A stretch of 64,000 bases of DNA, from NCBI GenBank assembly GCA_051294375.1, contig CM119267.1, forward strand, positions 9,791,458 to 9,855,457, written 5' to 3'. Shown here piece after piece: positions 8,883 to 64,000 of the stretch. Below the pieces are notes generated by a model. That model saw only the letters and a program-made list of their open reading frames with translations. It was not told where the DNA came from and did no database searches. The position numbers were made by a program, and so were the translations under genes. This DNA comes from Paraspadella gotoi (Eukaryota; Animalia; Chaetognatha). The stretch's first letter is position 1. Each line of letters begins with the position of its first letter.

Positions 8883-9621
8883 TCAGCTCTCGCCCTCCCC
8901 AGTGATCCAGCTCTGCTCGACGATGGCTCTCACGCGCTTCTCGTACTCGCGCTTGTTCTCCTGGTAGAGCTGCGCCGCCTGCGAATTGGCGGGGGAGTTG
9001 GGGTTGGGTTCGTCGAGGAGGGACTGGATCGACGTGAGGATGGCGGAAACATCGTAGGTCGGAGACCAGCGATTCTGGGTTGGGAAGAAAGAGAGAATTA
9101 ATAAAATAAGCCTAATACCCCCACCCCCAAAAAATTAGGGGGGGAATATTGAAATAGATCGCCCAACCTGCAATATATCCAGGCAGATGCTGCCGTCTGC
9201 ATACACATTAGGATGAAACATTTTCGAAACGAAACTGCAGGAAAGAAAAAAAAAACCGATTAGGTTAATATTTTCGAATCAATTATATTTTAAGTTTTAA
9301 TTCGCATCGTCCTTCGGCCCCCCACCCCACCCCCAAACAAAAAAGTTACCGAACGGTCGGGGGCTTGTTGGGATATTCCTCCGTAAATTCAATGGTGAGC
9401 TTGAAAGTCCCGTCCTCAAATGGCGTGTCATGGGGACCAAATATCACAGCATTCCACACCTGTCGGAAGTCATAATTTTATTCACTGTCACTTTCGCCGC
9501 AAACTCCTTTCAATATTACCATAATATTGTTCTCTGTCGGAGCGCCGCTGACGCCCGCTGGAGGGTCCTCCTGGAGCTTTTTAAAGTCTCTCATGAGACG
9601 ACGTCTGGCGGGAGTGGACAT
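8883..9621 (-). CDS. UBE2A: Ubiquitin-conjugating enzyme E2 Rad6/UBE2A (4 exons)
   Basis: Spliced translation [34 protein letters not shown]|[21 protein letters not shown]...|[22 protein letters not shown]|[48 protein letters not shown]...EGES*. Confidence 0.97.
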
Positions 9622-10176
9622 TTTTGTTAGGAGGGGGGAGGGGGAGGAGACGAGAGAATTACGGGGGAGGAGGGAGGTTTAGCCAATAGGGGAAGGTTTA
9701 TCGACGAGAGGCGTTTGACGAGTAGTAGAGTTTCAAGTCAACCAATCTTGAGAAGGTCCACGAATATTTTTTTTTATTTGTTGATCCAAATATATCATAA
9801 ATGACGTCTTAGCTCGAGTAGCGATTTAGTTTTATTGCATTAAACGTTCATTTCCAAATCATTAAGTTTTTTTTTCTCGACTTGACAAAAGATTGAACAC
9901 GTAAAGGGAGGAGTCAAGAAAAACGGATACAAAACGTCAAATCCTGTTAACGTTAAGATGCACGACAAGCAGTTCCACCAAGATGAGGTAACGTCAGATC
10001 AGTGGCTTCGCTACGTACTACTTGTGAAAGGGGGGTGGGGAGGCAATGAATGAAAAAAGATGTCACTCGGAAGTAAACTTCAATAAATAAAGCGTTAGCA
10101 CACAATCGATCAGTTCCGATAGCTTAGAAAAAATTGAGCCCTAAAACGGGTTTTTGGGTGGTGAAAAATCAGCAAG

Positions 10177-11558
10177 TCAAGCGCACTGAATGAATTCCGT
10201 CATGGGTCCATCTTTCTTGTCGAAAGTGGACCAGCCGTGTCCAGCTTCTTGCTTCCGCAACTTTACTTCAGCCTGAAAAAGAACGAAAAACGATCGTCAT
10301 TCGACAATGTTTGGCAAAACAGATGACATAAAAACAAGAAACTTTTCTAACTACCTTGGCGCCGCTCAATGTAACAGAACTCTGGCTTAAATCGACAACC
10401 CCGCTGAGCACGATCGTTTCGTCGAAAATTTTGTCGCCGAAAACCTAAAAGCGAAAGAACGACAATCGAGTTTTTGCGAGGCAGCTTTGCCAAGATTTGG
10501 CATTACCAAATGGAGATGGAGTTTAACTGGTGAGGCCTCCACGTAGCTGAGGTCGGGGTCGCAATTTTTGGCAAAGGCCGTATAGAAGACGTAAGGACCC
10601 GTTTGGTGCCAATCGGTCCGACAGGCCGATTTCACCTTGGTCGGATCCTCCTTTTGACCCCAAACGTGGTCGCCGGTGGCGCAAGGGTTCTGTTTAAAAA
10701 TGAGATTCAAAGGATCAAATCTTCTGAACTCGGCTCTTCACGAAAACGATTCCCGCAACGAACTTGCTCGAGAAAGGCATTAAAGTCGGTGGTCCGCTTT
10801 TCACAACAAGACCAAAATTTAAATCCCTCGTGGAATACAGGGTTGCCGGGATGAAAGGCGCAAGGTTTTGCTTCGCCATCGCCACCAACACGGACCATGC
10901 AACCGTTGTTCTTGCACGGCATCCCCAATGACTTGACATCGCTCTTTTCGTCGTCTTGTTTTTCCTCACCTTGATTCAGAGACAAATGTTTGAACAACGT
11001 CGAAACCAAACCTAAAAACAACTCCAACAACATTCACCTTGTGCTTGTTTTAGTTTAGCCAGAGCGCTTTTAAGACTGGAAGTGACGTTCGCGGAGAGTC
11101 GCACCATGGGCGTGTCTTCCGGAGGACGTTCGGTGATTTTTACTTGTTCCAAACTCAACTAAAAATATCGATCAATGCTAAGTCCGAGTTTGTAGAATGT
11201 AGATTTGAGCTTAAACTCAAAATCTCACCCGATTCGGCGCGTCATTCACTTCTTTCTTCTTGACCGGTTCTTGCGGTTTCGTCTTATTGTGAAAGCCGAT
11301 GGTGCATCCAAGAATTTCCATGAATTCCGTAAAGTCGGATGACTTTTTTTCGCAACATGTCCAGTGCTGGAAATGAAATATTTTTTTTTCAAAATTTATA
11401 ACTATTTTTAGCTCAAGTTCACAAACTGGCCTTACTTTGTACGCATCATGAAAATAGGGTTTCCCTGAGTGAAACGTGCAAGCCTTCGGATGATTAGAAG
11501 ATTCTTTAAATTTTTTCCCGCATCCTAAATTATAACATTGAAACTCCTCGTCGCACAT
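10177..11558 (-). CDS. CHORDC1: CHORD domain-containing protein 1 (Morgana/Chp-1 Hsp90 co-chaperone)
   Basis: Two CHORD zinc domains (CYNLGCG...CTFHSGKPYFHDAYK...WTCC and CKNNGC...CAFHPGNPVFHEGFKFWSCC) followed by a CS domain (CRTDWHQT...AEVKLRKQEAGHGWSTF). Confidence 0.95.
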
Positions 11559-11762
11559 TTTTGATGTAAATTAATTTTTTTTTTACGTTTGTCAAGGATT
11601 ATTTTTAAAAAAAGTGTGGAAGAAAGTTTTTCTCTTCTCAAACCTAAATTTATGATTGGAAAAAAGAGTATTGCCGATTCCATGGGCTAGTAAGAACATG
11701 ATAATAAAAAAAATAACTAAGAAAACAGTACTAGAAATGAAGTAAGGGACAAGGGTCTAACT

Positions 11763-13813
11763 CTAATCTGCCAAGGGAATTTCTCGCTCCTGCACGAAAA
11801 CGGTTTCCTGAGGAAAGAGGCCGGCGATCTTGAGTGTCACGTCGCTGTCCATGTAGGAGAGCTTCTTCCGCGGAAAGTTGGTGAGAAGTTCGAATCGCTC
11901 GGAAGAGAAGCCTTTGCTCTTCACGTAGAGCGTGAGAGCGAGAAGAGAGGAATCGGCGGGAATTTCGAGTTGATCCCGTTGACCGTCGGGAAGTCGAAAT
12001 ATGATTTTCGTTTTGACGTCTTCGTTGGAACCGACGTGACGCTGCCATTCCCGATCGTCGTCGGGAATAGAATCTTCGACAGCGTTCACTTCCGGATTCG
12101 AGGATCCAGCGACGACAGCTTCACCGCAAGGCGGCGAGGCGACGTCCGCCGAGCTCACTCTCGCACTCTCTGTCACGTCGTCCTCATCGTCGGAGCTAGA
12201 AAACGTCTCTAAATCCTCGTCCGTTTCGGCGCCATCGTCACTCTCAGTCGTTTCTGTTTCGCGAGGATGCCGGATTTTCGAGGGGCCGTCAACATCTTGC
12301 AAAGAGGCGCGAATAGCGGCTTGCAGTTGGTCGTCCTCGCTCTCGTCAACTAGACTTGTCAAGAGTCGGGGCTTTTTCGCGTCCGAAGGGTCTTCAGCAA
12401 CGGCCGAACCAATCTTTCGCTTGGAGGAAGACGCCGCGGACGTAGTCGGGTTAGGCTCGACATTGTCGACGTGAGAATGCGCGGATCCGTCGGGTGATGG
12501 GTGCTGGCGAAGAAACTCCGTGAGCGTCTCGCAGAAGGAGAGAGGATCAAACTTGTTAAGAGTCAAAAGGCGTTCCCCCGTCCGTGGATCCAAAATCGCG
12601 ATGTATGGGTATTGGGATATCGGGTAAAATTGCTCGTACTTAACTCCCTCGGAACTATCGTGATAAACCTTAAAGTTGAATAAAAATATGCATTAAGCCT
12701 TAGTGACTAAAAAAATAAGTGGAGAACAATTTTAATCTTGCATTGTTATTGTACCTGCCAGAACACGAAATGCTGCTTGACGAGTTCACGGATGGCGCCA
12801 TGACTCCATATGTCTCGATTAAGACATTGGCAAGAAAATTCCTTATGATTCTGCGAGGATATTTCATAAATAAAATAAATTTTATATCTTATTATAATCC
12901 ACGCAATAAATCCTACCTGAATATTAATCAGCAACCACATGTTGCCCCCCTTTCCTTCTTCCCTAGCGCCGAGGAAAGTTCCCGGATAAAGAAGGTCTAC
13001 AGGGGGACGGAACAGTTCCTCCAAGGTTTTTAGTTTTTTGGAAGGCTTAGCGCCGAATGAGGTGGCCGTGGTTGAGGGCGTCGACTCGGATTCTGACGTC
13101 GAGGTCTCCCCGGCCAACATAGCGCGTTGATGCTCCTCCGCCTCCCGCCGAAAATCGCGAAACCCATCGAAGACGGAGCTGATACGACCAAAGATTTAAC
13201 AAAGGATCAGCCTCAGGCTGCAAGAGTATGGTTGAGATGCTGGAGAAAAGGAGGATATTCGCATTGTCTCACCGGACTTTGGTGCTGGCGATGGACGGGA
13301 TCTTTCTAGAGTTAAGGATGACCGTGTCGTCGATGAGTTGTTCTCGTTTCTGAGGAATAGGCGCTCGGACAAAGTCTTCGTCGTCTTCCGGAGCCGGCGA
13401 TTCTTCAGAATGAACCTGTACAGAAAAGTCGAGGGATCAATAAATATAAGTAATAAAACATATTTGAAAATTTCACCTTAGATTTATTTTTTCGCTTGGA
13501 GTTATTCCTTTTCGGAGAGCAATTCGAGGATCTGGGTCTGCTCGCCTCTCCAACGTCGCTGTCCAGATACATGCCTATCGCTATATCCAGTTCCATGTTA
13601 CAGGCTTCCAACATATTACGGGCGACTTCCTCTGAGGCTCCTGCAAATTAAATTCAATTTAAGTCGGAGCACTTGTTTTTCAATTTAAAACTGCGCCGAA
13701 AAATAAAAAAATGAAGACAAACCCGTGACAGAAATAAATTGTGAGTAAATGTCGTCCTCAGCGCCGCTTGGGCCTTCGCAGTCTGTCTTAGATTTTTTGT
13801 TCTTCGCAGACAT
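11763..13813 (-). CDS. UBXN7: UBX domain protein 7 (UBA-UAS-UIM-UBX p97 adaptor)
   Basis: N-terminal UBA-like FISVTGASEEVARNMLEACNMELDIAI; VRAPIPQ; KTLEELFRPP; FSCQCLNRDIW (UAS); EDDQLQAAIRASL (UIM); FRLPDGQR...ELLTNFPRK...AGLFPQETVFVQER (UBX). Confidence 0.95.
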
Positions 13814-13929
13814 TTTCCTTATTTCTGTATAACCAAAAATAACTTAATCCGAATAACAAATTATCGACTAGTATAATCACGACGAGACCGCGGACGGAAC
13901 AATAAACAAGAATCGTGTAAACTTAAAAA

Positions 13930-16372
13930 TCATAATTTAGCTTTGGGAATGGCGGTGACCGGCTGAGACACGTCCATCGTAAATTCAGGGGGAACCATAG
14001 GGCGCAAAAAGGCGACAAGATCAAAGAGTCCCATCGCGTCCATGATTTCCATACATTGAGGCCGAGAGGGAGACTTTCGCGCTAAACCGGCAAAAATCAA
14101 AGCTTGCGAGGCATTGGCCAAAGTGTCGAGCGATAATACGTCGAACTGGGCCAGGCCGCGATCGAGCATGAATCGAAGGATTCGCGACTGAACGAGTTTG
14201 GCGTTCGACTTGGGATCTTGGAGCGGTTGGCCGTCGATCGTCATGTCGAGGAGAAAAACGGAGGATAAGTAATATGCTTCGAGGAAAGGAAGAAGGAGCC
14301 GATCGAGAAAACCTGTCAGTGGATGTTGTGGTACCATGACGAGGGTCGAAGCTACCTCGTCGAAATTTAACACTCCGTACGATGACAGAGTTCGAGCGGC
14401 CGCGCGGGAAAGAGAATCTAATTCCTCAGGAGGAAAAAGAAACTCTGGTTTCAACAACTGGCGAAGTCGTCGATGGCCGGCGAATACGACCGAGGCCTCG
14501 ACACCGGTATCACCGAACGTAGACAAAATCCTGACCAACAACGCCGAGTCGACCAGAAAATGCAAGGCTTGGTTCCGATAAATGGATAGTTGAACCATCC
14601 TCGACGCTCGCGCCAACAAGGCCGGGTTGAAAAGAGGAGACGGAGAGTCGGCACCAGGTTCCGCTATTCGAAGCACGACTCTCCCCGCGGAATTGAGTTC
14701 GACGGCGTCGGCGTGGAGGCGAAGTTCGCGGTCGACGACCGAATCGAGGGGGGTTGCTTCCACTTCAGCGTCGAAGGCGACCCCGACGCGTCGACAATAT
14801 TCGAGCAGCCTTTTCGTCTCCTCCTTCACGACGCTAAGAGGCACACCTTCGACGGGAGACTGGAGAAGGAGGGCTGCGATAATCGCGAAAGGGGAAGCCA
14901 CGAAGAGTCGCTGTTGGCGAAGCAACACTTCCAATCCTAAGACAATGAAAATATTCGAAAACATCTAAAAAAAAAATTGCCAAACGCTCTTTACTTTAGT
15001 CTTTACCCAATCGTTTCGAAGCCTTTATCTCATCAGGGGTCAAAGCGGAAACAATTCGAGGACGGAGATTGTAGACGGAGCGATCCACTCCGAAGTCGAC
15101 GAGGAGTTCCTTCGAAAACATAGGATCACCGAACATCACGCGAATTGTTCCGTAGTTTTCGGATAAAATTGATCGGGCTAAAAAAATTTTGAGGATTAAA
15201 ACATGAACGGACAAGTGGATCTTTTCCTCGAAGTTTATCTTCACCTTTAAACAGCCCAGAAGTAGACTCCTTCGGCTTGGGAATGCCCAGCAGTTCGTTG
15301 GCGTAGAGCGACTCTTCCAAAACTCGGTCGAAGCTGACGGCGACGGGAACGAGAACGACGTCGGGCACGCGACCTTTGATGACCAACTCCATCGCTGTCG
15401 AAAGCATTCCCAGCTTAGGAAGGAGGGATTTCCCCGTGCGGGACCGCGTTCCCTCGATAAAGAATTCCAACGGAAAATCTCCTGTATTCGAGAGGAAAGA
15501 GGAGTCGTTGAACGAATGGAATTGTAACGATAAAGTAGCCTCGCGTGGATTTACCCACCGTTCATAACGTGGGACTGGACGAATTCGGAAAAGATATTCC
15601 AGTAGAGAAGATCGGAGGCAAAGGAACGGCGAATAAAGAAACCGCCGCAATGACGAATAACGTTGGCAAAGAACTTCATGTTTAAAAAGTCCTGGCGAAA
15701 AAAAAGCGGGGAAATCTTACATCGATTCGGCAGAGGTCAAGTCCGGCCACGCGACGATACCTGAGCCGCGCAAATGACGGGACACGGCAACGAGTAGTGA
15801 AAGAGAACGAAGGAGAGCAGCAAAAAGTCCATGTAACTACGGTGAGATGGTACGAAAACGACGGGGTACTTGGTTACGAGCGCGTGGATTTTCTCCATCT
15901 GATCCGAGTTGACCGATACGCGTTCGTAAAGACACTTGAGCACTTTCGAGAAGAAATATCCGACGGTACGAACCCACTTCATCGATCTGAACAAAAAGGT
16001 CGGAGCGAAGAAATTAGTAGGATCGAGATCACCGTCCAAACGAACTTCCCCTACCTCGCGTGCGCCATTTCTTTGAGGATTTCTCTCGCCTCCTTGTCAA
16101 CTTCCTCAATCGCCCTCCCGCTCCGACGCGCTGCTTCCGCAACGGCCTCGCGGACCCGCGGAGAAGAAAGAACGGCGTCGCTAATTTCTTGAGGCGTTCG
16201 CTCCACGCAAGATTCGTATCGAGGCGGTGTCTGGCACTGATGGGGAACGCTGATTTAGTCGTTTTTGAACTAATTTTGTGTTTAATTTATATATTTTTTA
16301 AAATTTTTTTATAACCTGCATTACAAATCTTAAATCGCTCGCTCGTCGTCTCGGTTCAAGTATGTCGTCCAT
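13930..16372 (-). CDS. GNPAT: Dihydroxyacetone phosphate acyltransferase (peroxisomal, PTS1 -AKL)
   Basis: N-terminus [16 protein letters not shown]; acyltransferase motifs [18 protein letters not shown] and [12 protein letters not shown]; [15 protein letters not shown]; C-terminal AKL*. Confidence 0.95.
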
Positions 16373-16776: not shown

Positions 16777-18320
16777 TCAGTTCTTTTCGCTTCTTCCTTC
16801 GGCCATCAACTTCTCAATTTCCTCCACGGTCCGCGGCACGTCCGTCATCAGTTCCATCCCGTCCTTCGTGATGACGACGTCATCCTCGATCCTCACTCCG
16901 CCGAATCCGCGGAACTCCTCGAGGCGTTCCGCCACAACGAACCGGTGGAGCTCGTTTTCCGGCGAAATGAGACGATCGATGTTGAAGTCGATGAAGTAGA
17001 CACCAGGCTCCACCGTGAGCACCATGCCTGCCTCCAGCACGCGCGCCGTCCGCAGCGAGCTAAGACCCGGTTCGTCGGGGCGGGGGACTCCACCAGAGGG
17101 GTACCCATGCACGTCGTGCACGTCCAACCCCATGAAATGGCCGAGGCCGTGAGGCATGAAGATGGCGCCCAAGCGAGCCGCCATCATTTGGTCGACGTCT
17201 CCACGCAAAATGCCGCCCTTCTTTAGGTCTTCCAAGATGACGCGCTCCGCCAGGAGATGCATATCCTTCCAGGAAACGCTGGGACGGAGTTTGGCCATGA
17301 CAGCGCGAGAGGCTCGAAGGACTGTCTCGTAGATGAATCGCTGGCGATCGGTGAACTTTCCGTTGGCCGGAAAAGAGCAAGTAATGTCGGACGTGTAACA
17401 GCAATACTCTCCTCCCATATCGAAGAGACACATGTCGCCGTCTTCGATGCGCTTGTGGTTGGGCTCTCCGGCGTGGCCGTAGTGAAGAGTGGCGCTGTTG
17501 TTGCCGGTCCCGCAGATACAAGTGTAGGACGTGTGCCGCATTCCCCCGTGGGTGTAACAGTAGTGGCAAAAGAGACTCTCCATTTGATACTCCATCATTC
17601 CCGGGCGTATACGCCTCATGATCTCCTTGTGGGCGTCGGACGAAACGCGATTGGCGAAGCGAAGAACCTCCAACTCCATATCGGTCTTGATTACGCGAAG
17701 TTCCGCGATGTTCGGGTGGAGAATTTCGTTGTTAACTAAGAAAAGTTCATCGTTGTGATAAAGCAAGCACCGTGTTATCACCGCTCCTCTACTTTGGATC
17801 TTAACTAACCTTCGAACGACGAGATGTTGGGAAACTTGGCTTCCATCGTCATTTTCTGGGAGTCAGTGTTCAAACCTCTCAACGTGAGCAGGAGCTTTGC
17901 CCCGGCGCTCTTAAGCCATTCCTCGATTTCATGGACGTACTTGACGTCATCGACGGCGTACTTGGTGCAGAAGTGGGCTGGCGGGTGAACTTTTCCCATC
18001 CACACTCCGTAAGACTCGGGCAGTTGAGGCATGAAAAGGGTGGTTCGACCCGACGCCACATCCACCACGCCGATAAACTCGGGTTCCGTCACTCCAAAGG
18101 TCCAATGGAAGTAAGACTCTTGACGAAAGACCGTCTCTCGGTCCGAGTCGTATACAGTCTGCTGCTCCCCGCCCTGAAGCAGCACGAACACCCCCGGCTC
18201 GGACATCCTTGAATCGGCCTGGCGAAGGCGCCGACAGAGTCGATCCCGATTAAGTTTGAACATCGCCATGGGCACCTTAAGGGTGTCTTTGCCCATGGAA
18301 AAAGAGGCGGCGGAAGCCAT
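16777..18320 (-). CDS. PEPD: Xaa-Pro dipeptidase (prolidase), 2 exons
   Basis: [13 protein letters not shown]; [18 protein letters not shown]; [14 protein letters not shown]; TVEPGVYF; GGVRIEDD. Single intron at about 17737-17808. Confidence 0.97.
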
Positions 18321-18947
18321 GACAATGAAAAGGTCGCAGGATTCTCTGTTTATTTTAAAATGAAGAGATTCGTACGAATAAATCACGACAGTCAGATTTT
18401 ATTCAACGGTTTTCTTACAATAACATGATTAAAAATCGCTTAATATTAAATCAAAAATTAATACATTAATTCCGCTTTATAAAAGCCATATTGTTAACAA
18501 TATAAATTTTTAGTGTAAACTCTAGGAGAGGACTATTCCGTCTACTGACTAGAATTAAAATAATAATAAATAAAAATATGAAATGAAAAGACAATCAATC
18601 ATATAACTAAAAAATACCGATATGAACAAGAAAAAATATATAAAGAAAATAATGGTGGAAAAGAAAAAGATCTAGTGCCACAGCGGAGAAACAAATTAGA
18701 CAATGTATTTAATCTTTCTAGAAAAAATTTTAAAAATATTATTGAAATAAAGTCGGGAGAACTAATTTTAAGAATTTGTAATAAATTTAATTAACAAATG
18801 CAAAACCTTGACAATAATCTAGGATTTAAATGAGAAAATTTAAGCTTTTAACAAGTGTGTTTTATAACATACTGAAAACATACCATTCAAGACGAGTCTA
18901 TCACAGAGATGAAATAATATAAAAAATGGATGCTTGATTCTAAAAAC

Positions 18948-19043
18948 TTTTTACTTAACCGATCTCTACCATTTGAAAAAAAATATTTTGTAATTTATTT
19001 TAATGGTTTGTCAGTTATTTTGTAGAGATCGGTTAAGTAAAAA
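18948..19043. repeat. 22-bp perfect inverted repeat with a ~52-nt loop
   Basis: TTTTTACTTAACCGATCTCTAC (18948-18969) and GTAGAGATCGGTTAAGTAAAAA (19022-19043). Confidence 0.85.
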
Positions 19044-19533
19044 TTTTGGCTGATGTTGGTAAAAACGAGAGCTTTCTTATTAAAAATTTAAAAAATTTAT
19101 AATCTCAATCGTTATGTAACATCGCAATCATGCATAAACCGTTAAACGTATGCACAAAACCTTAATTGTCAGACTTCAATACTTTTCGATATGTAATAAG
19201 ATTAAAGTGTCATTCCTCATCTCGCCAGAAATTGAAAATAAATAGCGATCAATGTTACATCTACAAAACAGATTAATAAAATAAAAGTTTAAAAAGAACG
19301 AAACGACGCTCGGAAGAGCGCCTCCTCATCAGGCTTGGATAACCGCATATTGTAAAAACTAATTTATAAGATCTAATTCCAAAAGTTAATATCTATATCA
19401 ACAATTAAGTTTATTGAGTTGGGACAAACATGACCGTTTGATTCTGGATGCAACAATTTGGCAAATAGTGTTAACATCAATAAACAATTGACAAAAATAA
19501 CTGTAACACTGGGGGGAAAAAAGCAGTAAGATT

Positions 19534-20828
19534 CTAAGCGTCGGTCGTAAACGTCTTTGCGTCCGCGACGACATGAGAAGTGAGAAACTTGGAACTCTTG
19601 GATCGAGCGAAGCCGAACCCTTTTCTCTTTTTGCTGCCATCACCGTGACCGCGTCGATGGCGACTTTTCCGAATCATTCCACAAAGAAGAGAAAACGCCT
19701 GACGCAGTTAAATATCCCGAGTTGCAATCACTTGATATTTTTTTTAATTGGTTTTCGTAAAAAGACTTACTTCAGAAACGTTCATCGGAGGACTCTTCGG
19801 GCAGGCTTCGATATAGTCCATTCCGAGTTGCGCCGCTATCGCTTTACCCTGAGCGGACGTGACTTTCCTGATGAAAATGGGACCGACGTTGTTGGCCACT
19901 GATAAAAGAAACCAGGCGTGGAACCATGATTACTGGGTTAGCTTTTTCACCACTCGACGGTACCCAATTCTGTAAATCAAATATTCACCCAATAACATCG
20001 GCGGCGGATGAAAAACGGAATGCGACTCGTCGTCGGGCACGAGAAGGGAATGTATTTGACGGTGTTTTTGAGCGAGAGACATGATTTGACTGCGAAACAA
20101 AAGGAAGTGACAATCCATTGTCTATAGCCTATACATTCAATCTCTCCTATATATATAGTATAAAGAATATATCAGTATATAATCAAATCTTTATCACGTC
20201 CGGACCTGTGAATCTCCGGAATTCGCTCAAAACTCTTCACGCTGGTCACAGAATAGATGAGTAAAAACCCATCGGGAAATTTTTCCTCCTCGACGTATTT
20301 TTTATTGATGGACTCCCACGTAATCGGTCTCCTGTCGGGATTGGAGGGCGACGAAAGATCCGTCGTCGACGAAGCCGCCGCCGCCAAACCTCGGTCGGTT
20401 ATGGCCTCATCAATCTCCGCCTCCCACGATTCCAGCGTCATCATCACCTGCTCCTTATTGACTTCGCGCTGCAGCGTGTACACGCTCTCAACTTCCGGGT
20501 CAAATTCGTCGCAGTCCTCCGTCAAAGCTAATTGTCCATATACATACTAAAAGTAAGAGGGAAGGAATTATTCCTCAGTTTTACTCAACGGGCGACATTC
20601 CGAAAAAAACCCCATGTATACCTGCAACACGAGTTCATTCTTGCCGAGTAGGTCGGCCTCCTCCACGGCGACAACGTGATAATGAGTCATCTTGCTCTCG
20701 TTGGCGCTTTCTTTCGCCGCGGCGCGACCGCAGGTAAAACCGTCTCCGCCGGGAGCCGCCGAGTCCACGAAAGCTTCATACTTTCGTCCGCGGCGTTTTT
20801 TTGCGCCGGAAAAAAACAGTTTTGACAT
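19534..20828 (-). CDS. Divergent Ras-superfamily protein with degenerate G-boxes (probable pseudoGTPase), 5 exons
   Basis: Ras-like layout HYHVVAVEEADLLGKNELVLQ|YVYGQ...FDPEVESVY...MTLESWEAE...DGFLLIYSVTSVKSFERIPEIH...PMLL|VANNV...RKVTSAQGKAIAAQLGMDYIEACPK...NVSE|AFSLL, then a basic tail with no CAAX motif. Confidence 0.75.
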
Positions 20829-21002
20829 GAGAGGCCACCTCCGTTTTTCGATCTTTGGTTCAGCTACTTTATGAGTAATCTCTTTGATTGACCCTTTTTA
20901 ATCGTATTTTTGTAAATAAAGGCACCGAGGAAAGTGTGCGCTGTCAAATCCTCAAACGGCTGAAAAACATAACGGGGAGAGTGATTTCAAAGGGATCACA
21001 GG

Positions 21003-22136
21003 TTAAAGCAAGTTATCACAGAACTTTACAAGACTCGGAACAACGCTCGATTTTAAGGAGATTTTGTCCAAAGAATCGACTATAAATCTTTCTCGTCTGC
21101 TACAATTAGCAGAATTTTTTTTTTGACTCAAGGCATACGTGGGATCATAGTGATTAATCAGTAAAGACGCCACAAAACCGTTCCAATCCTTCTCGTCGAT
21201 CAGTTCCAACCAATGTTGGAGAAACTCTGGTTTTGCCACTTTAGTCAAACTAAGTAAAGCAGCCTTGAGGGCCTCCGGATCCTGAACGAAGTAATCGTAC
21301 TCCTCCACTGTATGCCTTACCCTCTCTTTGAACGGCACCGAGAGTTCAATCCGAGGTGAGGTTCTCATTCGCTCAAATAAGCAATTGGGCACCAAGACGT
21401 TGCCGATCCTCCTGCTCTCCGACTCGATCCATACGCGGTCCGCCGACCCGAACGTCCTAAGTTGTTCCCAGAGGAGCGACTCGAACCTCTTCTGCGTCGG
21501 TTGAGGCTCGTCTGGGTAGCGTCCGAGAACCGATCCCTTGTGTTTGGCCAGCGCCTCCAAATCCAGCACCTTTTCGCCGCTCCTCCGTAGCTGTCGCAGC
21601 AGCGCAGACTTTCCGCTTCCCGTGGGGCCGGAAATGACTAACAACGACAACGTGGCCGAGAGCGACTCTAGATCCTCCCGCACTTTTTCTCGGAAGGCCT
21701 TGTAACCTCCTTCCATGACGTACACGTCGAATCCGACGTTAGCGAGGACGAGGGCGAGACTATGAGAGCGCATCCCGCCGCGCCAACAGTATATCAAAGG
21801 CCTGTAATCGGCCTTTTTGTCCACGAAGCGTTCATTGAGAAGGCGAGAGATGTTGGCAGAAACGAGAGAGGCGCCAGTCTTGTGGCCCTCGAAAACGTTC
21901 ACGGCGTGTTGTCGACCTACGACGGCACGCTCGAAGGAGTCGAGGACGGGCGCGTTAAGCGACCAAGGAACGCGGTCCTCGCAAAATTCTTCGTGTGTGC
22001 GGACGTCGATTGTTTCGTCGAACGACCGCAACAAACACTCTTCGACTGTGCAGATTTTGGGTATCTTTGGCTTGTCCGAAAATCGGACCACTGTGTTGAC
22101 AAGTCGGTTAAAAGTCAACGAGTGACGATTTAACAT
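21003..22136 (-). CDS. selU: tRNA 2-selenouridine/geranyl-2-thiouridine synthase (SelU/MnmH/YbbB-like), intronless, 377 aa
   Basis: Rhodanese domain IDVRTHEEF...PLIYCWRGGMRSHSL...EGGYKAFR; P-loop GPTGSGKS; LDLEALAKHKGSVLG; QPTQKRFES; WIESESRRIG; LLINHYDPTY. The likely start ATG at 22136 directly follows TTTCAG. Confidence 0.92.
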   Translation of the reverse strand: MLNRHSLTFNRLVNTVVRFSDKPKIPKICTVEECLLRSFDETIDVRTHEEFCEDRVPWSLNAPVLDSFERAVVGRQHAVNVFEGHKTGASLVSANISRLLNERFVDKKADYRPLIYCWRGGMRSHSLALVLANVGFDVYVMEGGYKAFREKVREDLESLSATLSLLVISGPTGSGKSALLRQLRRSGEKVLDLEALAKHKGSVLGRYPDEPQPTQKRFESLLWEQLRTFGSADRVWIESESRRIGNVLVPNCLFERMRTSPRIELSVPFKERVRHTVEEYDYFVQDPEALKAALLSLTKVAKPEFLQHWLELIDEKDWNGFVASLLINHYDPTYALSQKKNSANCSRRERFIVDSLDKISLKSSVVPSLVKFCDNLL

Positions 22137-22355
22137 CTGAAAGTACGACATAAATAATGAATCGTGTACCGATTTGTAGGGAAGGAAAGCTAATTCGATT
22201 ATTATAATTAAAAGACAAACGGTGAACGACAATGGATTACAAAAGGAAAAAGCTGAAAAAGGAAAAGTACTACCTAATCCTCTACTATGTAAAACCGAGC
22301 CGGTGGTTTTCACCGGGGAAAAAATTAAAAAAAAAAATTGTATAATCTTCTTCGT

Positions 22356-25072
22356 TTAAAGATTAATATTTTTCGGGTGCATGCTGTTTGGCGGCTTAGA
22401 AAAAGAAACGCGAATGTGCATTCCACGAATTTCGCGGTTGTGAACGTGCACCAACGCGTGAACAGCCTCGTCGATGGACGCCATGGTGATGTGGGCCATC
22501 CGACGATTCTCGGCAAAGAACTGAAAAGCAATTTCAAAGCATTTTTCGTGACTTACATTTTAGCGGCGAAGAAATGAAAATCGACTTTACCTTAAACATT
22601 ACGATGTTGCCGAATTCTCTAAAAGGAGCTTGCACCTCGGCCTCCGTCGCGCCCTCTCCGACGTTGGAAACATGAAGAGTCGCCGAGGGTTCAAAAATAT
22701 TGGTAGAATTTTTCGATCCAGGTTTTTTGAAGCGATGAAGCGGAGACCCTAGAGGTTTCGGGAAAACGCGACCAGCGTATTAAGAGCCAAGTACTCAAAC
22801 TCGGTTTTGAAATACGTATTGAAGACTTACCCGTGTAATCTTTGGTAAGTTCCGCTCCTTCAGATCTGTCGTCCTTTGTCCTCTGAACGTGATCGTTCTT
22901 CGAAGGGCTCACGCTCATGGGTTTTCCATACAGCGGAATCTTGTCGAGAAACTGACGTGCCAAGTTGGCCATCCAAGGCTCGGTCATCTTAGGAGAAATA
23001 AAATTAAAATTGAAAGTGATGATCAAGAGTCGAGGTGATTCTTGCAGCAGAGTCAAAAAACCTGAATAAGGGCGGTGTCCTTTTTGTTGTACAGAATCTT
23101 GACGCGCAAGACATCCCCGTAGACCCCGAAGAGAGTGAAAAGAACATCGGGAGTGATGCGGGTCTCGTCCAGGTTGGAAACGATCAGAACGCATCCCCCG
23201 CGCAAGGGAACACCGCCCATCAGGCCGCCCACGGAGCTGTTCGAAACGCCGCCCATTATGCCAGTCGCTGAAGACGCTCCTCCGTCTGAATAATTTTTTT
23301 CCCCATAAAATTCTGCGGTCTCTTACATAAATAAAACATGACTACGAATTAAGAAAACGACAAAGTCTTAAGTTTTACCGTAAGCGTAGGCGGCGGGATT
23401 TCCACTGTTGACCGGAGGCTCGCCCAAGATGCTCATTCCCGTTCCATTAGAGGCGCGCGAAGCGATGAGCGCGTTGTTCGGCAGACCTGCTTGGCCCTGG
23501 CCAGGAGGCGTATGGGCCGCCTCCCTGCAACGGCAGGCGAGCGAGGGAGACAAAAGTTGAGAGAGAGAGAGGGAGAGAGAGCGAGAGTTAGAGGAGAGAA
23601 CGGAGATTACGAGCGGAGAACGAGAAATGTTTCAACGCTTTGGCTTTTGGGAAGATGAAGCGGAGCGACGAAGGAGCCGAGAGATGGGAGAGTTTTATAA
23701 AGAACAAAGAAAAATGAAAGACGGGAATAGCCAATGCATTGAAAACCGAGTTTGAGAGCTAAAAAGCGACGAGTTGAGAGAGAAGGAGCGAAAAAGGGAA
23801 TAAAAACAATTAGTCTAAGATCGTCGGGAAACCGCGAACGCGACGCCGGGAGAGAAAGGTAGAGAGAAAAAAAGGATAGAGATAGAAAAGACGAACCGAA
23901 CGACAGAAAGAGACAAAAGATAAGAAGTGCCGTCAATGAATATCGTTGGGTGACAAAAACCACTTACCTTTAAAAAAATATCTGCCACGAGTTAATAAAA
24001 TATTCAAATAGCAAAAACAGCGACAGCATGCGAACTCACATCATTTGATTCGGTCCCGACGGAAGGTTTGGATTGGTAAAATCCCACCCTCGGTCGTTGT
24101 TGTATTTGATGTTGAGGTCAGTGAGCTTCGAGAACTCAATCTGCAGCTGACAGCAGCAGTTGTAGATATTCTTTCCGTGAAGGACTTGTCGCGCGTACTT
24201 CGCAGCGCTGCTTGATCCGTACTCAATCAAGGCCTTAAGAAAGATAAAAGAATAAAAGAATAAAAGAATAAAACAACAAAATCTATAATACAACATACTA
24301 AATACTAAAATACTAATTTTAGAATCGTACTCACCTGGAAAACATTGTTTTTCGTGAAGGTTACGATTTTTTGAATGTTTCCATGCTTCTTGAAAATATT
24401 GGCCAATGTGTCCATGGATACCGGGTATACCATGTTCTCGATGTTAACGTGCAAAATGGAACCAACGGGAATACCTAAAAAAAATGAAACGATGCAAGAC
24501 GGTATCCAACGTAATCAATCCATTAAGCTTACCGTTGTCGACAAACTGGATAAGATGACCAGTTTCGGGTTGAGATTCAGTTTTCAATTGCTGAATGAAT
24601 AAAGTAAAAAATCTTTTCATAAATATAATTATAAAAATATAAGACCGATTATTTTTGGCTTACCTTGTGCTGCGAAAACTGTACGTAGATAGTTCGACCG
24701 TGCAACTGAAATTGCGTCGGGAGATTGTTGTAATAATTGACCATATCAACGGCGCCGTGTTCAGTTTCGAATTCCAGGAAGGCCTGCGTCTTTGTCTTAA
24801 GCATCAAGATGTTAGTGATGAGACCGAAACGGCTTCCCAGTTCAATAATCTGTCGAATTAACCGTAATAAAAGTACATAAAAAATAAAAAAATTACAAAA
24901 TTATAAATATTCTCCTCACCTCTTGTTCGGTGGTAAACTGATGAATGTTACGGATGTGAATGACGCGAGATGGATCGACCTTGGCTCGCTTCGTATCACT
25001 TTCATTCATCATATCGTCGGCGCCTCGCTTACCGCCAACGACGCCGTAGCCGTTTCCGTAAAGATCCATCAT
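22356..25072 (-). CDS. PTBP1: Polypyrimidine tract-binding protein (PTBP/hephaestus-like, 4 RRMs)
   Basis: KRGADD...SRVIHIRN; VYVQFSQHK; [13 protein letters not shown]...[14 protein letters not shown]; [27 protein letters not shown]; [33 protein letters not shown]; HIRVSFSK. Confidence 0.92.
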
Positions 25073-53778: not shown

Positions 53779-54829
53779 AATTGAACGATCCTTATGCTCA
53801 TTTTTCTGCTCTCTCTCTCTCTCTCTTTGCAATTGCGACGATCCTATGCTCATTTTTCTGCTCTCTTTCTCTCTCTTTCACAAGTAAAATGTAACTTATA
53901 TTTTTTCCATTTAAACTCATTTCCACTGGGACAATTTTGTCAAAACTTTATATCTCGCTTCTTCACACACTTTCCTACCCGCTCACAAAATTTCATCTCA
54001 ATCTATTATGGGTTAAAATAAGTAAAAAGATTCAAGTAAACTCATTTCCACTCGTACGTTTCCACCAAAACTTTATGTCTGTAGCATTTATCTCTAGCAC
54101 CAATTAATTATTTATTAATTATTAAGGAAGCAATTATTTAATCATCTTAGTTATTAAGTAATATACTTTACAAAATATCTCAATTTAATATTATAATTAT
54201 AAATAGCATGTCAACATCGGGAATCGAACACCCGACTTAACGAACTACTAGCACCGCCTTAATCGATGTCGCCACTCGGCACTGTTTTCGGAAAACATCC
54301 CAAACTCGGATTAATTGGTGCTAGGGATAAATGCTACATATCAAGCATCGTTACACATTTTTCTACCCACACAAAAAATTTGAACTCAATCTATCCATCC
54401 AATTATGATTAATTAGAGTACTTATTGGTTAAAATAATTAAAAATATTTTAGTAAATGCGACTTATGTTTTTTCTTCTTAAACTCACACGATTCCGTCGA
54501 AACTTTATATCCAGCTTTATCACACACTTTCCTACCCACACACAAAATTTCTTTCCAATCCAACCAGCCAATCACGAGTTATTGGAGCTTTTTGCTGAGG
54601 TGGGACTGATTAATCTTTTGATTTATTAATACATCCTGCATATACATTTAATATACAAGGAAAAAGAATCCATAATCAATTAGTAAAAAGGTTTTTTGTT
54701 TTTTTTTCATTTAAACTCATTTCCACTCAAAAGATTCCATCGAACTTGGTTTCCTGTTCAATCACACACTTTTTCTACTCACATACAAAATTCCAGGTCA
54801 ATCGATAATTAAGTGGTAATAAGCTAACT

Positions 54830-55180
54830 TGTGCAACTTGCATAATTTAATCAACTTGCATAATTTTGTCAACTGACATAATTTGGTTAACTGACATAAT
54901 TTGGTCTACTGACATAATTTGGTCAACTGACATAATTTCATCAATTAAGATAATTTGGTCAACAGGCATAATTTGGTCAACTGGCATAATTTTATCAACT
55001 GGCCTAATTTGGTCAACTAGCATAATTTGGTCAACTGGCATAATTTGGTCAACTGGCATGATTTGGTCAACAGGCATAATTTGGTCAACAGGCATAATTT
55101 GGTCAACTTGCAGAACTTGATCAACTTGCAGAATTTGGTCAACTGGCATATTGTTTGTCAATTGGCATAATTTGGTCAAT
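54830..55180. repeat. 18-bp minisatellite (TTGGTCAACTGGCATAAT)n, ~19 units
   Basis: Head-to-tail units with no spacers; it explains the (MPVDQI)n and (STGIIW)n ORFs. Confidence 0.95.
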
Positions 55181-55749
55181 CAATCAATCAATCAATCAGA
55201 GAGAGATAGAAACTTTTAAAAAATTCAAATAAATGTGTCTTTTGGTTTTCTAATTTGAACTCTTTCCACTCCTACGATTCCATCAAAAAATTTATATCCA
55301 GCTTTATCACATACTTTCCTACCCACACACAAAATTCCATTTCGAATTATCTATCCAATTTTTAATAAACATAATAATTATGAGTAAATTTAAGTAAAAA
55401 TACTTCAAGTAAATATGACTTTTGTTTTTTCCATTTTTACTCATTTCCACTCGCACGATTCCATCGAAACTTTATATCCAGCTCAATCACACACTTCCCT
55501 ACCATCATACAAAAGTCAATTGTCAATTGCCCTATCCACTCATAAGCAATTGGCGTTCAAAATAGTGAAATATATTTTTTTGTTTTTTCCATTTAAACCA
55601 ATTTCAACTCGCACGATTCCCTCGAAACTTCATATCCATCTCAATCACACAGTTTCCTACCCACACACAAAAATTTCATACCAATCCATCCATACAATCA
55701 CGAGTAATTGGAGTTTTTTGCTAAGGTGGGACGGACGGACGGACGGACG

Positions 55750-55812
<63 letters not shown>

Positions 55813-56559
55813 ACGACGGACATCGTTTTTTTTGCATAATTTATCATAATTCGATGTTCTGACATGATATAAGTGTGTGGCCCGACAATATTGAGGGGGG
55901 GACCGAAAAAGTGAGTTATAGAAGTCGGGATCTGCTGATAAGCAGATCCGACTAAAAATATTCATGGCACTTTGGTTGGCGAGCTTGCCCGTTGTCTTTT
56001 TGTTCGAGCGCGAGAAAAGATTCTGACTTAATGAAGGAATTAAAGAGGTCGCGACGACCGTGCTTTCAGTCATTTTCTTCGGGAGGAGGAGAACCTGGCT
56101 TCGCCGCTTCAACCGTGACACTAAGAGACGGCGCCTAATCGGCTTTAAGGTCGGACCCCTCTGGAAACACTCGATTGAAAATGTTCTCGAATTAGAAAGA
56201 AGAGCTCAGTCTCGTCGGGTGGATTTCGTCGAGGGTCCAAATAGTGAGGGAAACTCTTTGCCAGAATAACCGGGATTTTCAATTATGGAACCCTTAGGGT
56301 TTTTCAATTGAGTCAGATGGTTAGCGTCACCAATGTGTGACCTCTTCGATAAATACATTTGCATAGTTAATAAATAGTTACTGAGAAGTAACAAAAGTAC
56401 CCACTACTATCAATCTCGTGACATTGACAAGAAATCAACTAGTCCACCGTTCAAGTAATAATCGACAAAATGTTTAGCAGATTTTTTTTTTTTTCCATTT
56501 CACGAGGCAACAAACAATAGAATCATGGTTAAATAACGAAACGGGCAGGCGAAAGGAGT

Positions 56560-58834
<2,275 letters not shown>

Positions 58835-59169
58835 TTATGTGTATATAATTTTTATAAAATTTATTAGTTAGAAAACTACTTGACGTTTATTTGGACCTAA
58901 AAAAATGTTTACATTTCCTAACAGTATAATCACTAGGCCGGAACAGGTTGAAAACTAGAAGTTCTTTCAAATAGATAATAGGGTGGAGTGATGAAAAGAT
59001 TGAGTGGTTGAACATCATTTTTTTGCTGCCTATGGACATATATCATATAATTAATGAATTTTAAATCTTTTTAAAAATCTTTTTAGCATAACAGTATAAT
59101 ATATTCAATTATTTATGTAGTAATATCCTTATAAAATCGTTAAATTTCAAAATAATTTTCTTTTATTTT

Positions 59170-60420: not shown

Positions 60421-60773
60421 NNNNNNNNNNTTTAACTTTTTATGAATTAAAAAAAAATCATTTTTAAAATTTACTATTTTATAAGAATATTACAACAAAT
60501 ATATTGTTAACCATAGTATAATCCTTTTTATTTCGTTGCGATTTAGAATTGTAGAGAAAGTTTTATTTTTGTGTGACAAAACAACGATTTTATTAATTAT
60601 TAGCAGACATGTTTCGACTCTTATTGCGAGCCATCAGCGCTTTTACAGTTACAGTTGCAAAACTGTAACTGTAAACTTGTCATACAAAAATAAAACTTTG
60701 TTTTCTCGACAAATATATTATATTTTACTATTCTGTTCCCGAAACAATNNNNNNNNNNNNNNNNNNNNNNNNN
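60421..60773. other. Two scaffold gaps (N at 60421-60430 and 60749-60773) flanking a duplicate of 59541-59858
   Basis: 60431-60748 reads identical to 59541-59858. Confidence 0.95.
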
Positions 60774-60816
60774 TGCTAAGGTGGGACGGACGGACGGACG
60801 GACGGGACGGACAACC

Positions 60817-60848
<32 letters not shown>

Positions 60849-63800
60849 GACAGACCAACAGACAGACAGAAGACAGACAGACGGACGACGGCCGGACATC
60901 GTTTTTTTTGCATAATTATCCAGAATCCCGATGTTTCTGACATATATAAGTGTGTGCCCGACAATATGAGGGGGGCGGGACCGAAAAAGTGAGTATAGGT
61001 CGGGATCTGCTGATAAGCAGATCCGACTAAAAATATTCATGCACTTTTGGTGGCGAGCTTGCCCGTTGTCTTTTGTTCGAGGGCGAGAAAAGATTCTGAC
61101 TTAATGAAGGAAATAAAGAGGTCGCGACGACCGTGCTTTCAGTCATTTTCTTCGGGAGGAGGAGAACTGGGCTTCGCCGCTTCAACGTGACACTAAGAGA
61201 CGGCCGCCTAATCGGCTTTAAGGTCGGACCCCTCTGGAAACACTCGATGGAAAATGTTCTGAATTAGAAAGAGAGCTCAGTCTCGTCGGGTGGATTTCGT
61301 CGGAGGGTCAAATAGTGAGGGAAACTCTTTGCCAGAATAACCGGATTTTCAATTATGGAACCCTTAGGTTTTCATTGAGTCAGATGGTTAGCGTCACCCA
61401 TGTGTGACCTCTTCGATAAATACATTTGCATAGTTAATAGATAGTTATGAGAAGTAACAAAGTACCCACTACTATCAATCTCTGTGACATTGACAAGAAA
61501 TCAACTAGTCCACGCGTTCAACGTAATAATCGACAAAATGTTTAGCAGATTTTTTTTTTTTCCCTTTCCATTTCACGAGCAACAAACAATAGAATCATGG
61601 TTAAAAACGAAAACGGCAGGCGAAAAGTTCATGTGGCCACTCAGGCGTTCTGGTTTGTCACCGTCGTCGGTGAACGGAAGAGATAACTGTGGTAGGGCGT
61701 TGGAGCGCGCGAAGACCTTGGTGATGATTATCCTTACTATCGCCGGTCAACCTGGGTATATTTTGCAATTTTCAATCGCGGTTGATAAAAAGCAACCCAG
61801 AATCGAAAACGAATCCGCCCACTAACGAGATCGACTTTTCCGCCCCATTTTTTTTCGCCGCAGTCGGTGGCTCCTCGTCCTTCGATGACGCTTTGATATC
61901 GTCTGAGTCCAAGGTTTCGTATCTGTAGCGTTCAGAAAAATTATAAGACCTGTTTATTTAAACACGCGTGTGGTAATTCGCCTTCGTCTTACAGGAGTAA
62001 GGCGTCGACGAGATTGTTGTGCTCGGTTTTTGTGCTGCTCCAAAATCGACTTGGCGCGTTTGTAGCCTTCATCAAGCAGCTTTTTGATCTCTAAGTCAAC
62101 CAGTTCTTTCATGGATTCCGCTGAGAAGACGAGCCTAAAATCGAGTCCAAAATAATACATAGGTTAGAGTTTAACCGCATTCCTCAGTCACGACGTACTT
62201 CATGGTAAGTCCTCGTCCCCGCGGCATCGCTCATTCAAACAGTCTGACGATTTGCGAAGCGATGAGCGTGGCCGTTTCGAAGTCGGAAGTGGCGCCGGTG
62301 CCACGTTTTCCTCTCCCAACGCCATGTCTTCCCCAACCCGACCGGCCCATGCAGACATCGATGCGGGCCAAAAGCCGGCTCTCGTAGTGTCGTACTCTCG
62401 GTCTTGCATCTGATCCAATCGAACCCAGCGTCTGACCACGAGGAACGATGGTCACTTTGTTGATCGGGTCGGACTGTGGGATAAGAAAGACGAGTTGTCT
62501 CGTCGATGTCTCATGACTTACAAAACCATTGCGACTTACGTGTTGCGTAAAGTAATTTACTATTGTGTGGCCTGCCTCGTGCGATGCGGTTCTCTTAACC
62601 GAAAGGTCGTCGTCAATTCGATTCTTCTTTTCGGGCCCCATCCGCTCCTTATCCAAGGCCCATTCCAAGTCTATCATTGAAACAAGTGCTGCAAAAAAGG
62701 GAACGCTATAATTAAATATCATTGGGTTACCACTAAAAACACCATAGTCAGTACCGGGCGTTGTCTCTGGCGGCCTTGATGGCTGCCTGATTAACGACGT
62801 TTGCGATTTGAGCGCCTAAAAATCCGACAGTCTTCTTTGCCAAATTCTCTGCATTGACTTCGACGCTGTCAGCTTTGATCTTGCTCAGGTAATGGTCAAA
62901 CAATTCAGTTCGCCCTATGAACGAGAATAAAGAAGAGAGAAGAGATGGTAGAACAACAAAACTAATCAATTTTAGTACTTGAGCTTCACCTTTGAGATCC
63001 GGTGGCCAAACTTGTACTTCTACGTCAAATCTTCCTGGCCGAAGCAAAGCTGGGTCGAGATTCTCTCTCTTATTGGTGGCGCCTAGAGCGGCGAAAAATT
63101 GAAAGATAACGACAAATGTAAAATTTTAAAATCAACATTTAATATTACCAAAACAACAACTCCTTCCGACTTATTAAAGCCGTCCATCTCCGCCAAAAAG
63201 TTGGTTAATGGTCTGATTGGCGTAGGGATGGAGTTGGGAAGAGGTTCGCTTGGCTCCGCAAGTATCGATCTCGTCGATGAAGAGGACGCAAGGCGCTTTG
63301 GCTTTGGCAGCGGCCAAAGAGCTGTCTCACCCGCTTGGCGCCAGTTCCCACAAATATCTCGTCGAACTCGGAACCGGAGGCGTGAAAAAGGGAACGCCTG
63401 GTAAGGAGGTGATAAATCAAGAACCACAGAATCATAGATGTCGTAGACACTCAGTCAATTCGACTAACCAGCCTCCCCGGCGACTGCACGGGCCAGCAAC
63501 GTTTTCCCGATGCCCGGCTTTCCCACGAGCAAGACCCCTCTCGGCATGCGGCCGCCGAGGGCGGAAATCTTTCGGGATCTTTGAGGAACTCGACTATCTC
63601 GATCAACTCTTCCTTGGCCTCGTCTACGCCCTTAACGTCCTTGAAGGTAACATTGACCTCTTCGGGCTTGACTTCATGCTATTCATGTTCATGGACATGG
63701 TGACGCCACCGGCGACGCCGGATAAACCGTTCCAAAGAAACGAAAGGAGCTGAATTATGATCAACAACGTCACGACGGTCCATAAAATACGGATCACGCG

Positions 63801-64000
63801 TTGAACAGGTTTGACACTGTGGGCAAAAACTAAAGAGTTAGCATCATACAGGGACTCCAATCCTTAGTGATACGAAAAATTTTGATTAAACTCGTAATTC
63901 TTTATGTGTATATAATTTTTATAAAATTTATTAGTTAGAAAACTACTTGACGTTTATTTGGACCTAAAAAATGTTTACATTTCCTAACAGTATAATCACT
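60774..64000 (-). other. Indel-ridden duplicate of 55719-58934 (Helentron-like 3' end plus YME1L1 3' exons); probable assembly artefact
   Basis: Collinear near-identity including introns. The differences are mostly 1-nt indels, often in homopolymers, that break the reading frame. It begins exactly at an N gap. Confidence 0.8.

Follow-up and report, generated by a model that had tools for sequence, protein, structure and literature searches.

Bacterial SelU, also named MnmH or YbbB, geranylates the sulfur of 2-thiouridine and then puts selenium in its place, as set out in a section of a 2020 review that describes the existence of this tRNA selenation route in eukaryotes as unknown (PMC7694415). 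In the Salmonella enzyme, selenation depends on Cys97 and geranylation on Lys155 (PMC4830565). Passages in four papers treat ybbB as a prokaryotic trait (PMC4561486, PMC1273633, PMC9312934, PMC4989117), and mnmH stands in a table of a microalgal review (PMC10215577). A passage of PMC7216251 says that YbbB orthologues have been identified in mammals, citing a paper on bovine liver tRNA, and reports selenium-containing tRNA, its position unknown, from mammalian and plant cells. In the archaeal split SelU (TIGR04568/TIGR04569), the same two domains are encoded by two genes. A precedent for patchy retention in animals, with a reaction different from that of SelU, is TilS, a bacterial-type tRNA-modifying enzyme of non-bilaterian animal mitochondria that was kept in some lineages and lost in others (PMC4558845); SelU is not covered there, the text searched having no 'selen' or 'thio' term.

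How does the arrow-worm gene compare? The window, a stretch of 64,000 nucleotides from Paraspadella gotoi, encodes a SelU with the domains, the insertion and the key residues of the bacterial enzymes (TIGR03167, NF008752, NF008750). It differs from them in being a nuclear animal gene in a one-strand cluster, with an N-terminus that is longer by about 25 presequence-like residues, and it is of the shorter subfamily that lacks the helical insert found in E. coli SelU. NCBI automatically names invertebrate proteins 'tRNA 2-selenouridine synthase-like'; in the literature searched, which comprised titles and abstracts and few subscription journals, we found no paper with the phrase '2-selenouridine synthase-like', no study of an animal SelU gene and no functional study of any bivalve, Styela, Branchiostoma, Macrostomum or Diaphanoeca homolog. 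The window SelU belongs to an unstudied animal branch whose leaders are likely mitochondrial; a recent transfer would have been the greater surprise. In some animals, an unstudied modification of mitochondrial tRNA has likely been retained.

The SelU gene and its catalytic residues

The frame is free of internal stops from the ATG at 22136 to the TAA at 21003, while the plus strand over the same stretch is riddled with them (Table 1). The preliminary description had called this a complete rhodanese and P-loop SelU, and both the YCWRGGMRS and the GPTGSGKS motif are indeed present in the translation. Its assignment to SelU/MnmH holds as well, by profile scores and by alignment to E. coli SelU. 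Three of the five MnmH models among the NCBIfam/TIGRFAM profiles were passed at their curated cut-offs (NF008752, 392.5 against 266; TIGR03167, 319.1 against 219.75; NF008750, 301.7 against 241), with NF008751 (160 against 361) and NF008749 (125 against 548) below theirs. The archaeal half-models scored far below cut-off (48 against 200 and 36 against 180).

Table 1. Features of the SelU locus, in positions of the window
Feature	Position	Strand	Basis
SelU/MnmH ORF, single exon, 377 aa	21003..22136	minus	translation; NCBIfam NF008752; unspliced RNA contig
TTTCAG, putative trans-splice acceptor	22137..22142	minus	sequence; abuts SelU ATG
Predicted mitochondrial presequence, aa 1-19: basic, acid-free, predicted helix	22080..22136	minus	composition; helix 2-19 in model
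Rhodanese domain, aa 42-150, with MnmH-type insertion and Gly88 (= E. coli Gly67)	21687..22013	minus	PF00581; E. coli SelU alignment; 3g5j fold match
Cys117, catalytic cysteine (= E. coli/Salmonella Cys97)	21786..21788	minus	alignment
Walker A GPTGSGKS, aa 170-177, Lys176 (= Lys155)	21606..21629	minus	alignment
Upstream PTBP-like gene	22192..25071	minus	9 RNA joints; weak RRM_5 match; stop 22356-22358; RNA 3' end near 22192
Downstream spliced gene, divergent small GTPase-like	19400..20828	minus	4 RNA joints; translation

Alignment to E. coli SelU (NP_415036; 36% identity over 250 aligned columns) places Cys97, Gly67, Arg129 and Lys155 at Cys117, Gly88, Arg149 and Lys176. Two nearby positions are substituted, Ala63 by Gly84 and Leu66 by Thr87. 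The C-x-x-G motif, as defined in PMC4830565, here reads Cys117-Trp-Arg-Gly, and the MnmH insertion of 33-36 residues within the rhodanese part could be aligned with no large gap. By Pfam and by the predicted model, one chain carries the rhodanese and the P-loop domain; its relatives carry PF00581 and PF26341. The model (mean pLDDT 88.4) comprises an N-terminal helix of low confidence, the rhodanese domain and the P-loop domain. Its best match among the solved structures searched was 3g5j, an isolated N-domain, for the rhodanese part; no full-length SelU structure was matched there.

A cysteine equivalent to Cys117 is present in all 16 aligned relatives of the animal clade and is followed by RGG in 14. 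Two scallop homologs keep the Cys and the P-loop and have lost the RGG after the Cys as well as the Gly67 region; their activity is possibly changed or lost, to judge by these residues.

Assembly and RNA evidence

The SelU stretch was found in 9 of the 11 listed sequencing runs, from three studies, seven of which runs may be the assembly's own source. Four runs were aligned to the window, three of DNA and one of RNA, and two runs of other organisms gave almost no matches to it. The fourth run is identified as RNA because 13 GT-AG introns, those of the two genes flanking SelU (nine in the PTBP-like gene, four in the downstream gene), are skipped there yet kept in the three DNA runs. Contigs cross the junction between PTBP and SelU, whose checking had been proposed, in all three DNA runs: one spans PTBP, SelU and the next gene at 19300-23552 with no difference from the window, another does so unbroken at 19453-24605, and in the third run, which is not marked as an assembly source, a contig at 19385-22337 links SelU on one side with the 3' region of PTBP and on the other with the next gene.

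One RNA contig starts at 22134, two nucleotides into the SelU start codon, crosses SelU unspliced, makes four splices in the next gene and continues over a 1.1-kb intergenic stretch to 17810. The PTBP RNA contig ends at 22192. These data confirm SelU as a real, intact and transcribed member of its family. The RNA cover comes from one run, one study and one sample, and it could be that of a precursor, because the contig crosses the 1.1 kb of intergenic DNA and unspliced material is present in the run; a mature SelU mRNA is thus not proven. The absence of introns from SelU, noted from the start, agrees with RNA that is unspliced from 20622 to 22134 in the same run that skips the introns of the flanking genes. 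The companion claim, that all 16 other genes of the run are spliced, was upheld in part, by RNA joints in six neighbours and by RNA pieces that stop at exon edges (17810, 26465) in two more.

The gaps around SelU were re-measured and agree with those given earlier, at 219 nt behind the stop of PTBP and 174 nt ahead of the following ATG; both are shorter than the same-strand distance of 250 nt used in PMC12460157. Arrow worms have leader-resolved operons (PMC2481426; PMC12460157, from portions of both papers), and the trans-splicing of SelU is suggested by layout alone. Among the loose ends listed for the RNA run, none placed a spliced leader on SelU mRNA, and no leader-like pattern was found within the 64-kb window. 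At 22134 the RNA contig carries a loose end of 42 nt, which contains a T-run and would add an in-frame ATG five codons upstream; it is absent from the window and matches none of the published arrow-worm leaders. We rejected it as a spliced leader, as it is unlike those leaders and does not fit the AG acceptor; it is likely a chimeric end of that one contig.

Single RNA contigs bridge several genes (9350-16300, 6179 nt; 17810-22134, 4466 nt). They are in line with polycistronic precursors, and contigs cannot show single transcripts.

Relatives and origin

Homologs are named from at least 11 animal species: eight bivalves (Mercenaria, Ruditapes, Dreissena, Tegillarca, Mizuhopecten, Mytilus, Saccostrea and Ylistrum), the tunicate Styela clava, amphioxus (Branchiostoma) and the flatworm Macrostomum. 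The choanoflagellate Diaphanoeca has one as well. Identity to the named animal and Diaphanoeca proteins is 35-49%. Each homolog search listed the best 120 of about 8000 candidates scored, most of them unnamed, so that a group missing from these listings need not lack the gene; among the matches listed, the closest relatives are four metagenome proteins at 51-57% identity. A third search, with protist-like queries, returned mostly cyanobacteria and one new animal, and many unnamed cluster representatives have long basic N-termini resembling protist precursors. An Atlas search returned MnmH clusters alone. In a metagenome scan, 38 loci were recovered with identities of 33-52%, none of them from a relative close enough for synteny.

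Trees were built from 171, 97, 46 and 31 rows, hand-picked from about 500 proteins. In the 97-row tree (LG+G4, quick), SelU sits in a branch of 22 rows with support 96, made up of 19 animal or near-animal rows, three unnamed rows and no named bacteria, with Macrostomum outside it. The 46-row tree (mixture model, quick tree only) unites 13 of 14 animal rows with support 80. In the careful 31-row tree (LG+G4), all 11 animal-labelled rows, four of them unnamed and labelled by closeness, form one branch with one further unnamed row (96/93); a long-branch warning was given for Macrostomum. The bivalve, Styela clava, Branchiostoma and Macrostomum homologs share the branch and the leader type of the window SelU, with Macrostomum outside the animal branch in two of the three larger trees. 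The choanoflagellate SelU groups with presequence-bearing protist-like rows (99) and not with the animals themselves; several lineages of SelU may exist among eukaryotes, as these groupings would suggest.

Can the lack of introns be read as a foreign mark? One exon of a CCZ1-like neighbour, with a minimum of 1221 nt, exceeds the entire SelU ORF in length, and three further exons measure 900-1000 nt. A genomic ORF of oyster type, with 75% identity to Saccostrea, shows a 30-residue read-through insertion in Walker A, and in another homolog cluster, on megabase contigs, members are split at or a few bases from the same site. Bivalve-type SelU genes, in contrast to the window SelU, thus appear to have one intron, at Walker A, and the window lineage either lost it or never gained it. 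Given the long neighbour exons and the one bivalve intron, intronlessness is a weak sign of foreign origin.

Two readings would make the gene bacterial in a more immediate sense. That it is a contaminant fused into the contig by misassembly could appeal to the DNA runs that match best, which may themselves be the source of the assembly. The spanning contigs rule this reading out, and we regard its probability as negligible: a DNA run not flagged as a source links both neighbours with SelU, an RNA contig from another study ties it to the spliced exons of the next gene, and the closest named homologs among the matches listed are animal. The view of SelU as a genuine host gene, taken in the preliminary description from its tight placement, is sustained by the DNA and RNA contigs that bind it to spliced neighbours. 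The same description suggested that a prokaryote-derived or retroposed gene could gain expression by inserting behind a trans-splice acceptor. Such a recent transfer into the host lineage can draw on the missing intron, on Betaproteobacteria that reach about 48% identity, level with the bivalves among the matches listed, and on a patchy distribution in which none of the names among those matches belongs to a vertebrate, arthropod, nematode, cnidarian or sponge. It is nonetheless largely refuted by the animal grouping and the AU tests and now seems very improbable. SelU groups with bivalve, tunicate and amphioxus homologs, and the phylogeny that had been called for speaks against recent horizontal transfer, with no named bacteria in the SelU branch. 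Placing the SelU clade with Betaproteobacteria (p 0.013), cyanobacteria (0.031), two gammaproteobacteria (0.013) or three unnamed bacterial-type rows (0.010) was rejected by AU, these p values being uncorrected, the groups picked after the results were seen, and one of the four passing a Bonferroni threshold of 0.0125. One animal clade (p 0.32) and animals with the choanoflagellate pair (p 0.21) were not rejected, and neither trees nor tests nest SelU inside one bacterial group. The GC3 of SelU, 0.605, lies within the neighbours' range of 0.57-0.72, a comparison that does not separate the host from GC-rich bacteria.

SelU has its leader region and C-terminal features in common with the four relatives of 51-57% identity, which argues that the animal clade is old. 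An old bilaterian gene with many losses appears to fit best, the gene deriving ultimately either from the mitochondrial ancestor or from an early transfer. A broad, vertically inherited metazoan clade of known function had been named as what would lessen the novelty of the gene; the clade has proved broad, and the literature searched gave no function for its members.

The N-terminal leader

Import signals typically share composition without much sequence similarity, and an Arg commonly stands two residues before the cleavage site. In the window SelU an Arg stands two residues ahead of a putative cleavage site after Phe19; the model forms a helix over residues 2-19, with pLDDT low at residues 1-20. 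The earlier characterization of the extension as rich in Arg, Ser and Thr is borne out for its lack of acidic residues in the first 20 and is only moderately true otherwise (3 Arg, 2 Ser and 2 Thr in those 20). That the leader resembles a presequence fits its composition and now extends across the animal clade: all 18 Met-starting proteins of the clade have 36-59 residues before the core, no more than one acidic residue among the first 20 and a net charge of +1 to +6. Named bacterial proteins have 14-29 residues ahead of the core, and 3 of 29 are so acid-poor. The comparison is one of composition only, among related and hence not independent sequences. The animal-clade leaders have a common composition and little sequence likeness, and they are likely mitochondrial import leaders on these features. 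The next Met after Met1 is residue 122, within the active-site loop, so no shorter cytosolic SelU would start downstream.

Proposed function

We consider it reasonably probable, from residues, leaders and trees, that this is an intact animal SelU, inherited from early animals with many losses, that would act in mitochondria to convert 2-thiouridine into 2-selenouridine via an S-geranyl intermediate. The gene would be transcribed with its neighbours, trans-splicing at the AG that precedes the ATG would supply its 5' end, and the leader would be cleaved after mitochondrial import. The P-loop domain would bind geranyl diphosphate and the thiolated anticodon, leading to geranylation of the sulfur, and Cys117 would support the swap of S-geranyl for selenium from selenophosphate or selenide. 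The predicted substrates are the wobble 2-thiouridines of tRNA-Lys, -Glu and -Gln. Arrow-worm mitochondria are described, in portions of two papers, as having lost many or nearly all tRNA genes (PMC11886574, PMC5470650); the substrates would therefore be imported nuclear-encoded tRNAs. If so, tRNAs geranylated or selenated in the organelle might be retuned or trapped for mitochondrial decoding.

Would selenium reach the enzyme? Animal selenophosphate synthetase is mainly cytosolic, which makes the matrix selenium donor the weak step of the proposed route. The main rival accordingly keeps the enzyme in mitochondria as a geranyltransferase only, or in sulfur turnover on 2-thiouridine tRNA, with no selenium donor reaching the matrix. 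It gains from the Salmonella enzyme, in which Cys97 is dispensable for geranylation and the Walker motif, intact here, is needed (PMC4830565), and from the scallop homologs, where the P-loop is kept and the rhodanese loop degraded; the conservation of the Cys and of the RGG after it across the animal clade is what selected selenation would lead one to expect, and we hold this rival to be unlikely. Still less likely, and in our judgement improbable, is an enzyme that stays in the cytosol and acts on mcm5s2U tRNAs, its N-extension being no import signal. Selenophosphate and geranyl diphosphate are made mostly in the cytosol, which would suit such an enzyme, as would the finding that bacterial SelU, that of E. 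coli, geranylates a stem-loop of human cytosolic tRNA-Lys3 in vitro (PMC5159532). Against it stand the basic, acid-poor extension in 18 of 18 animal-clade proteins despite their low sequence likeness, and the want of a usable downstream Met.

The selenating mitochondrial enzyme, were it borne out, would add geranylated and selenated uridines to the tRNA chemistry of animal mitochondria, and a non-selenoprotein use of selenium to animals. A bolder and rather doubtful extension would make the selenation of mitochondrial wobble uridines by an endogenous SelU an ancestral trait of animals; this fourth use of selenium would have stayed hidden because model animals lost the gene. Selenation of eukaryotic tRNA is directly testable, since a catalytically intact animal enzyme is present in mussel, oyster, Styela and amphioxus. 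A selenoprotein T EST is listed in a Spadella supplement, which hints that selenophosphate is made in this phylum; the three supplements searched from the arrow-worm genome paper gave no entry for SELU, MNMH or SEPHS.

Neighbouring genes

Pfam matches were obtained in 15 of the 18 same-strand stretches around SelU, with eukaryotic housekeeping domains: Intu/CCZ1 longin, M24 peptidase, GPAT, UBX, CHORD, ACBP-ankyrin, thioredoxin, CLPTM1, IRS-type PTB, carnitine acyltransferase, RPL15 and AAA. Where gene names go further than these domains they are our assumption, as is PTBP for the gene upstream of SelU. The gene after SelU encodes about 315 aa, is small-GTPase-like with a degenerate P-loop, and has four RNA-supported introns; two of its exon stretches gave no Pfam match, and we take its G3 motif to be of the RGK type. 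No tRNA genes were found within the 64-kb window. Part of an AAA-protease (YME1L-like) gene is present in two copies of 3.2 kb, at 55728-58934 and 60804-64000, that are 96.7% identical. An N gap lies near 60750, and the copies appear to differ in frame; the second copy is either a tandem duplicate or an assembly artefact. A short tandem repeat at 54820-55179 encodes DQIMPV-like units repeated in one frame.
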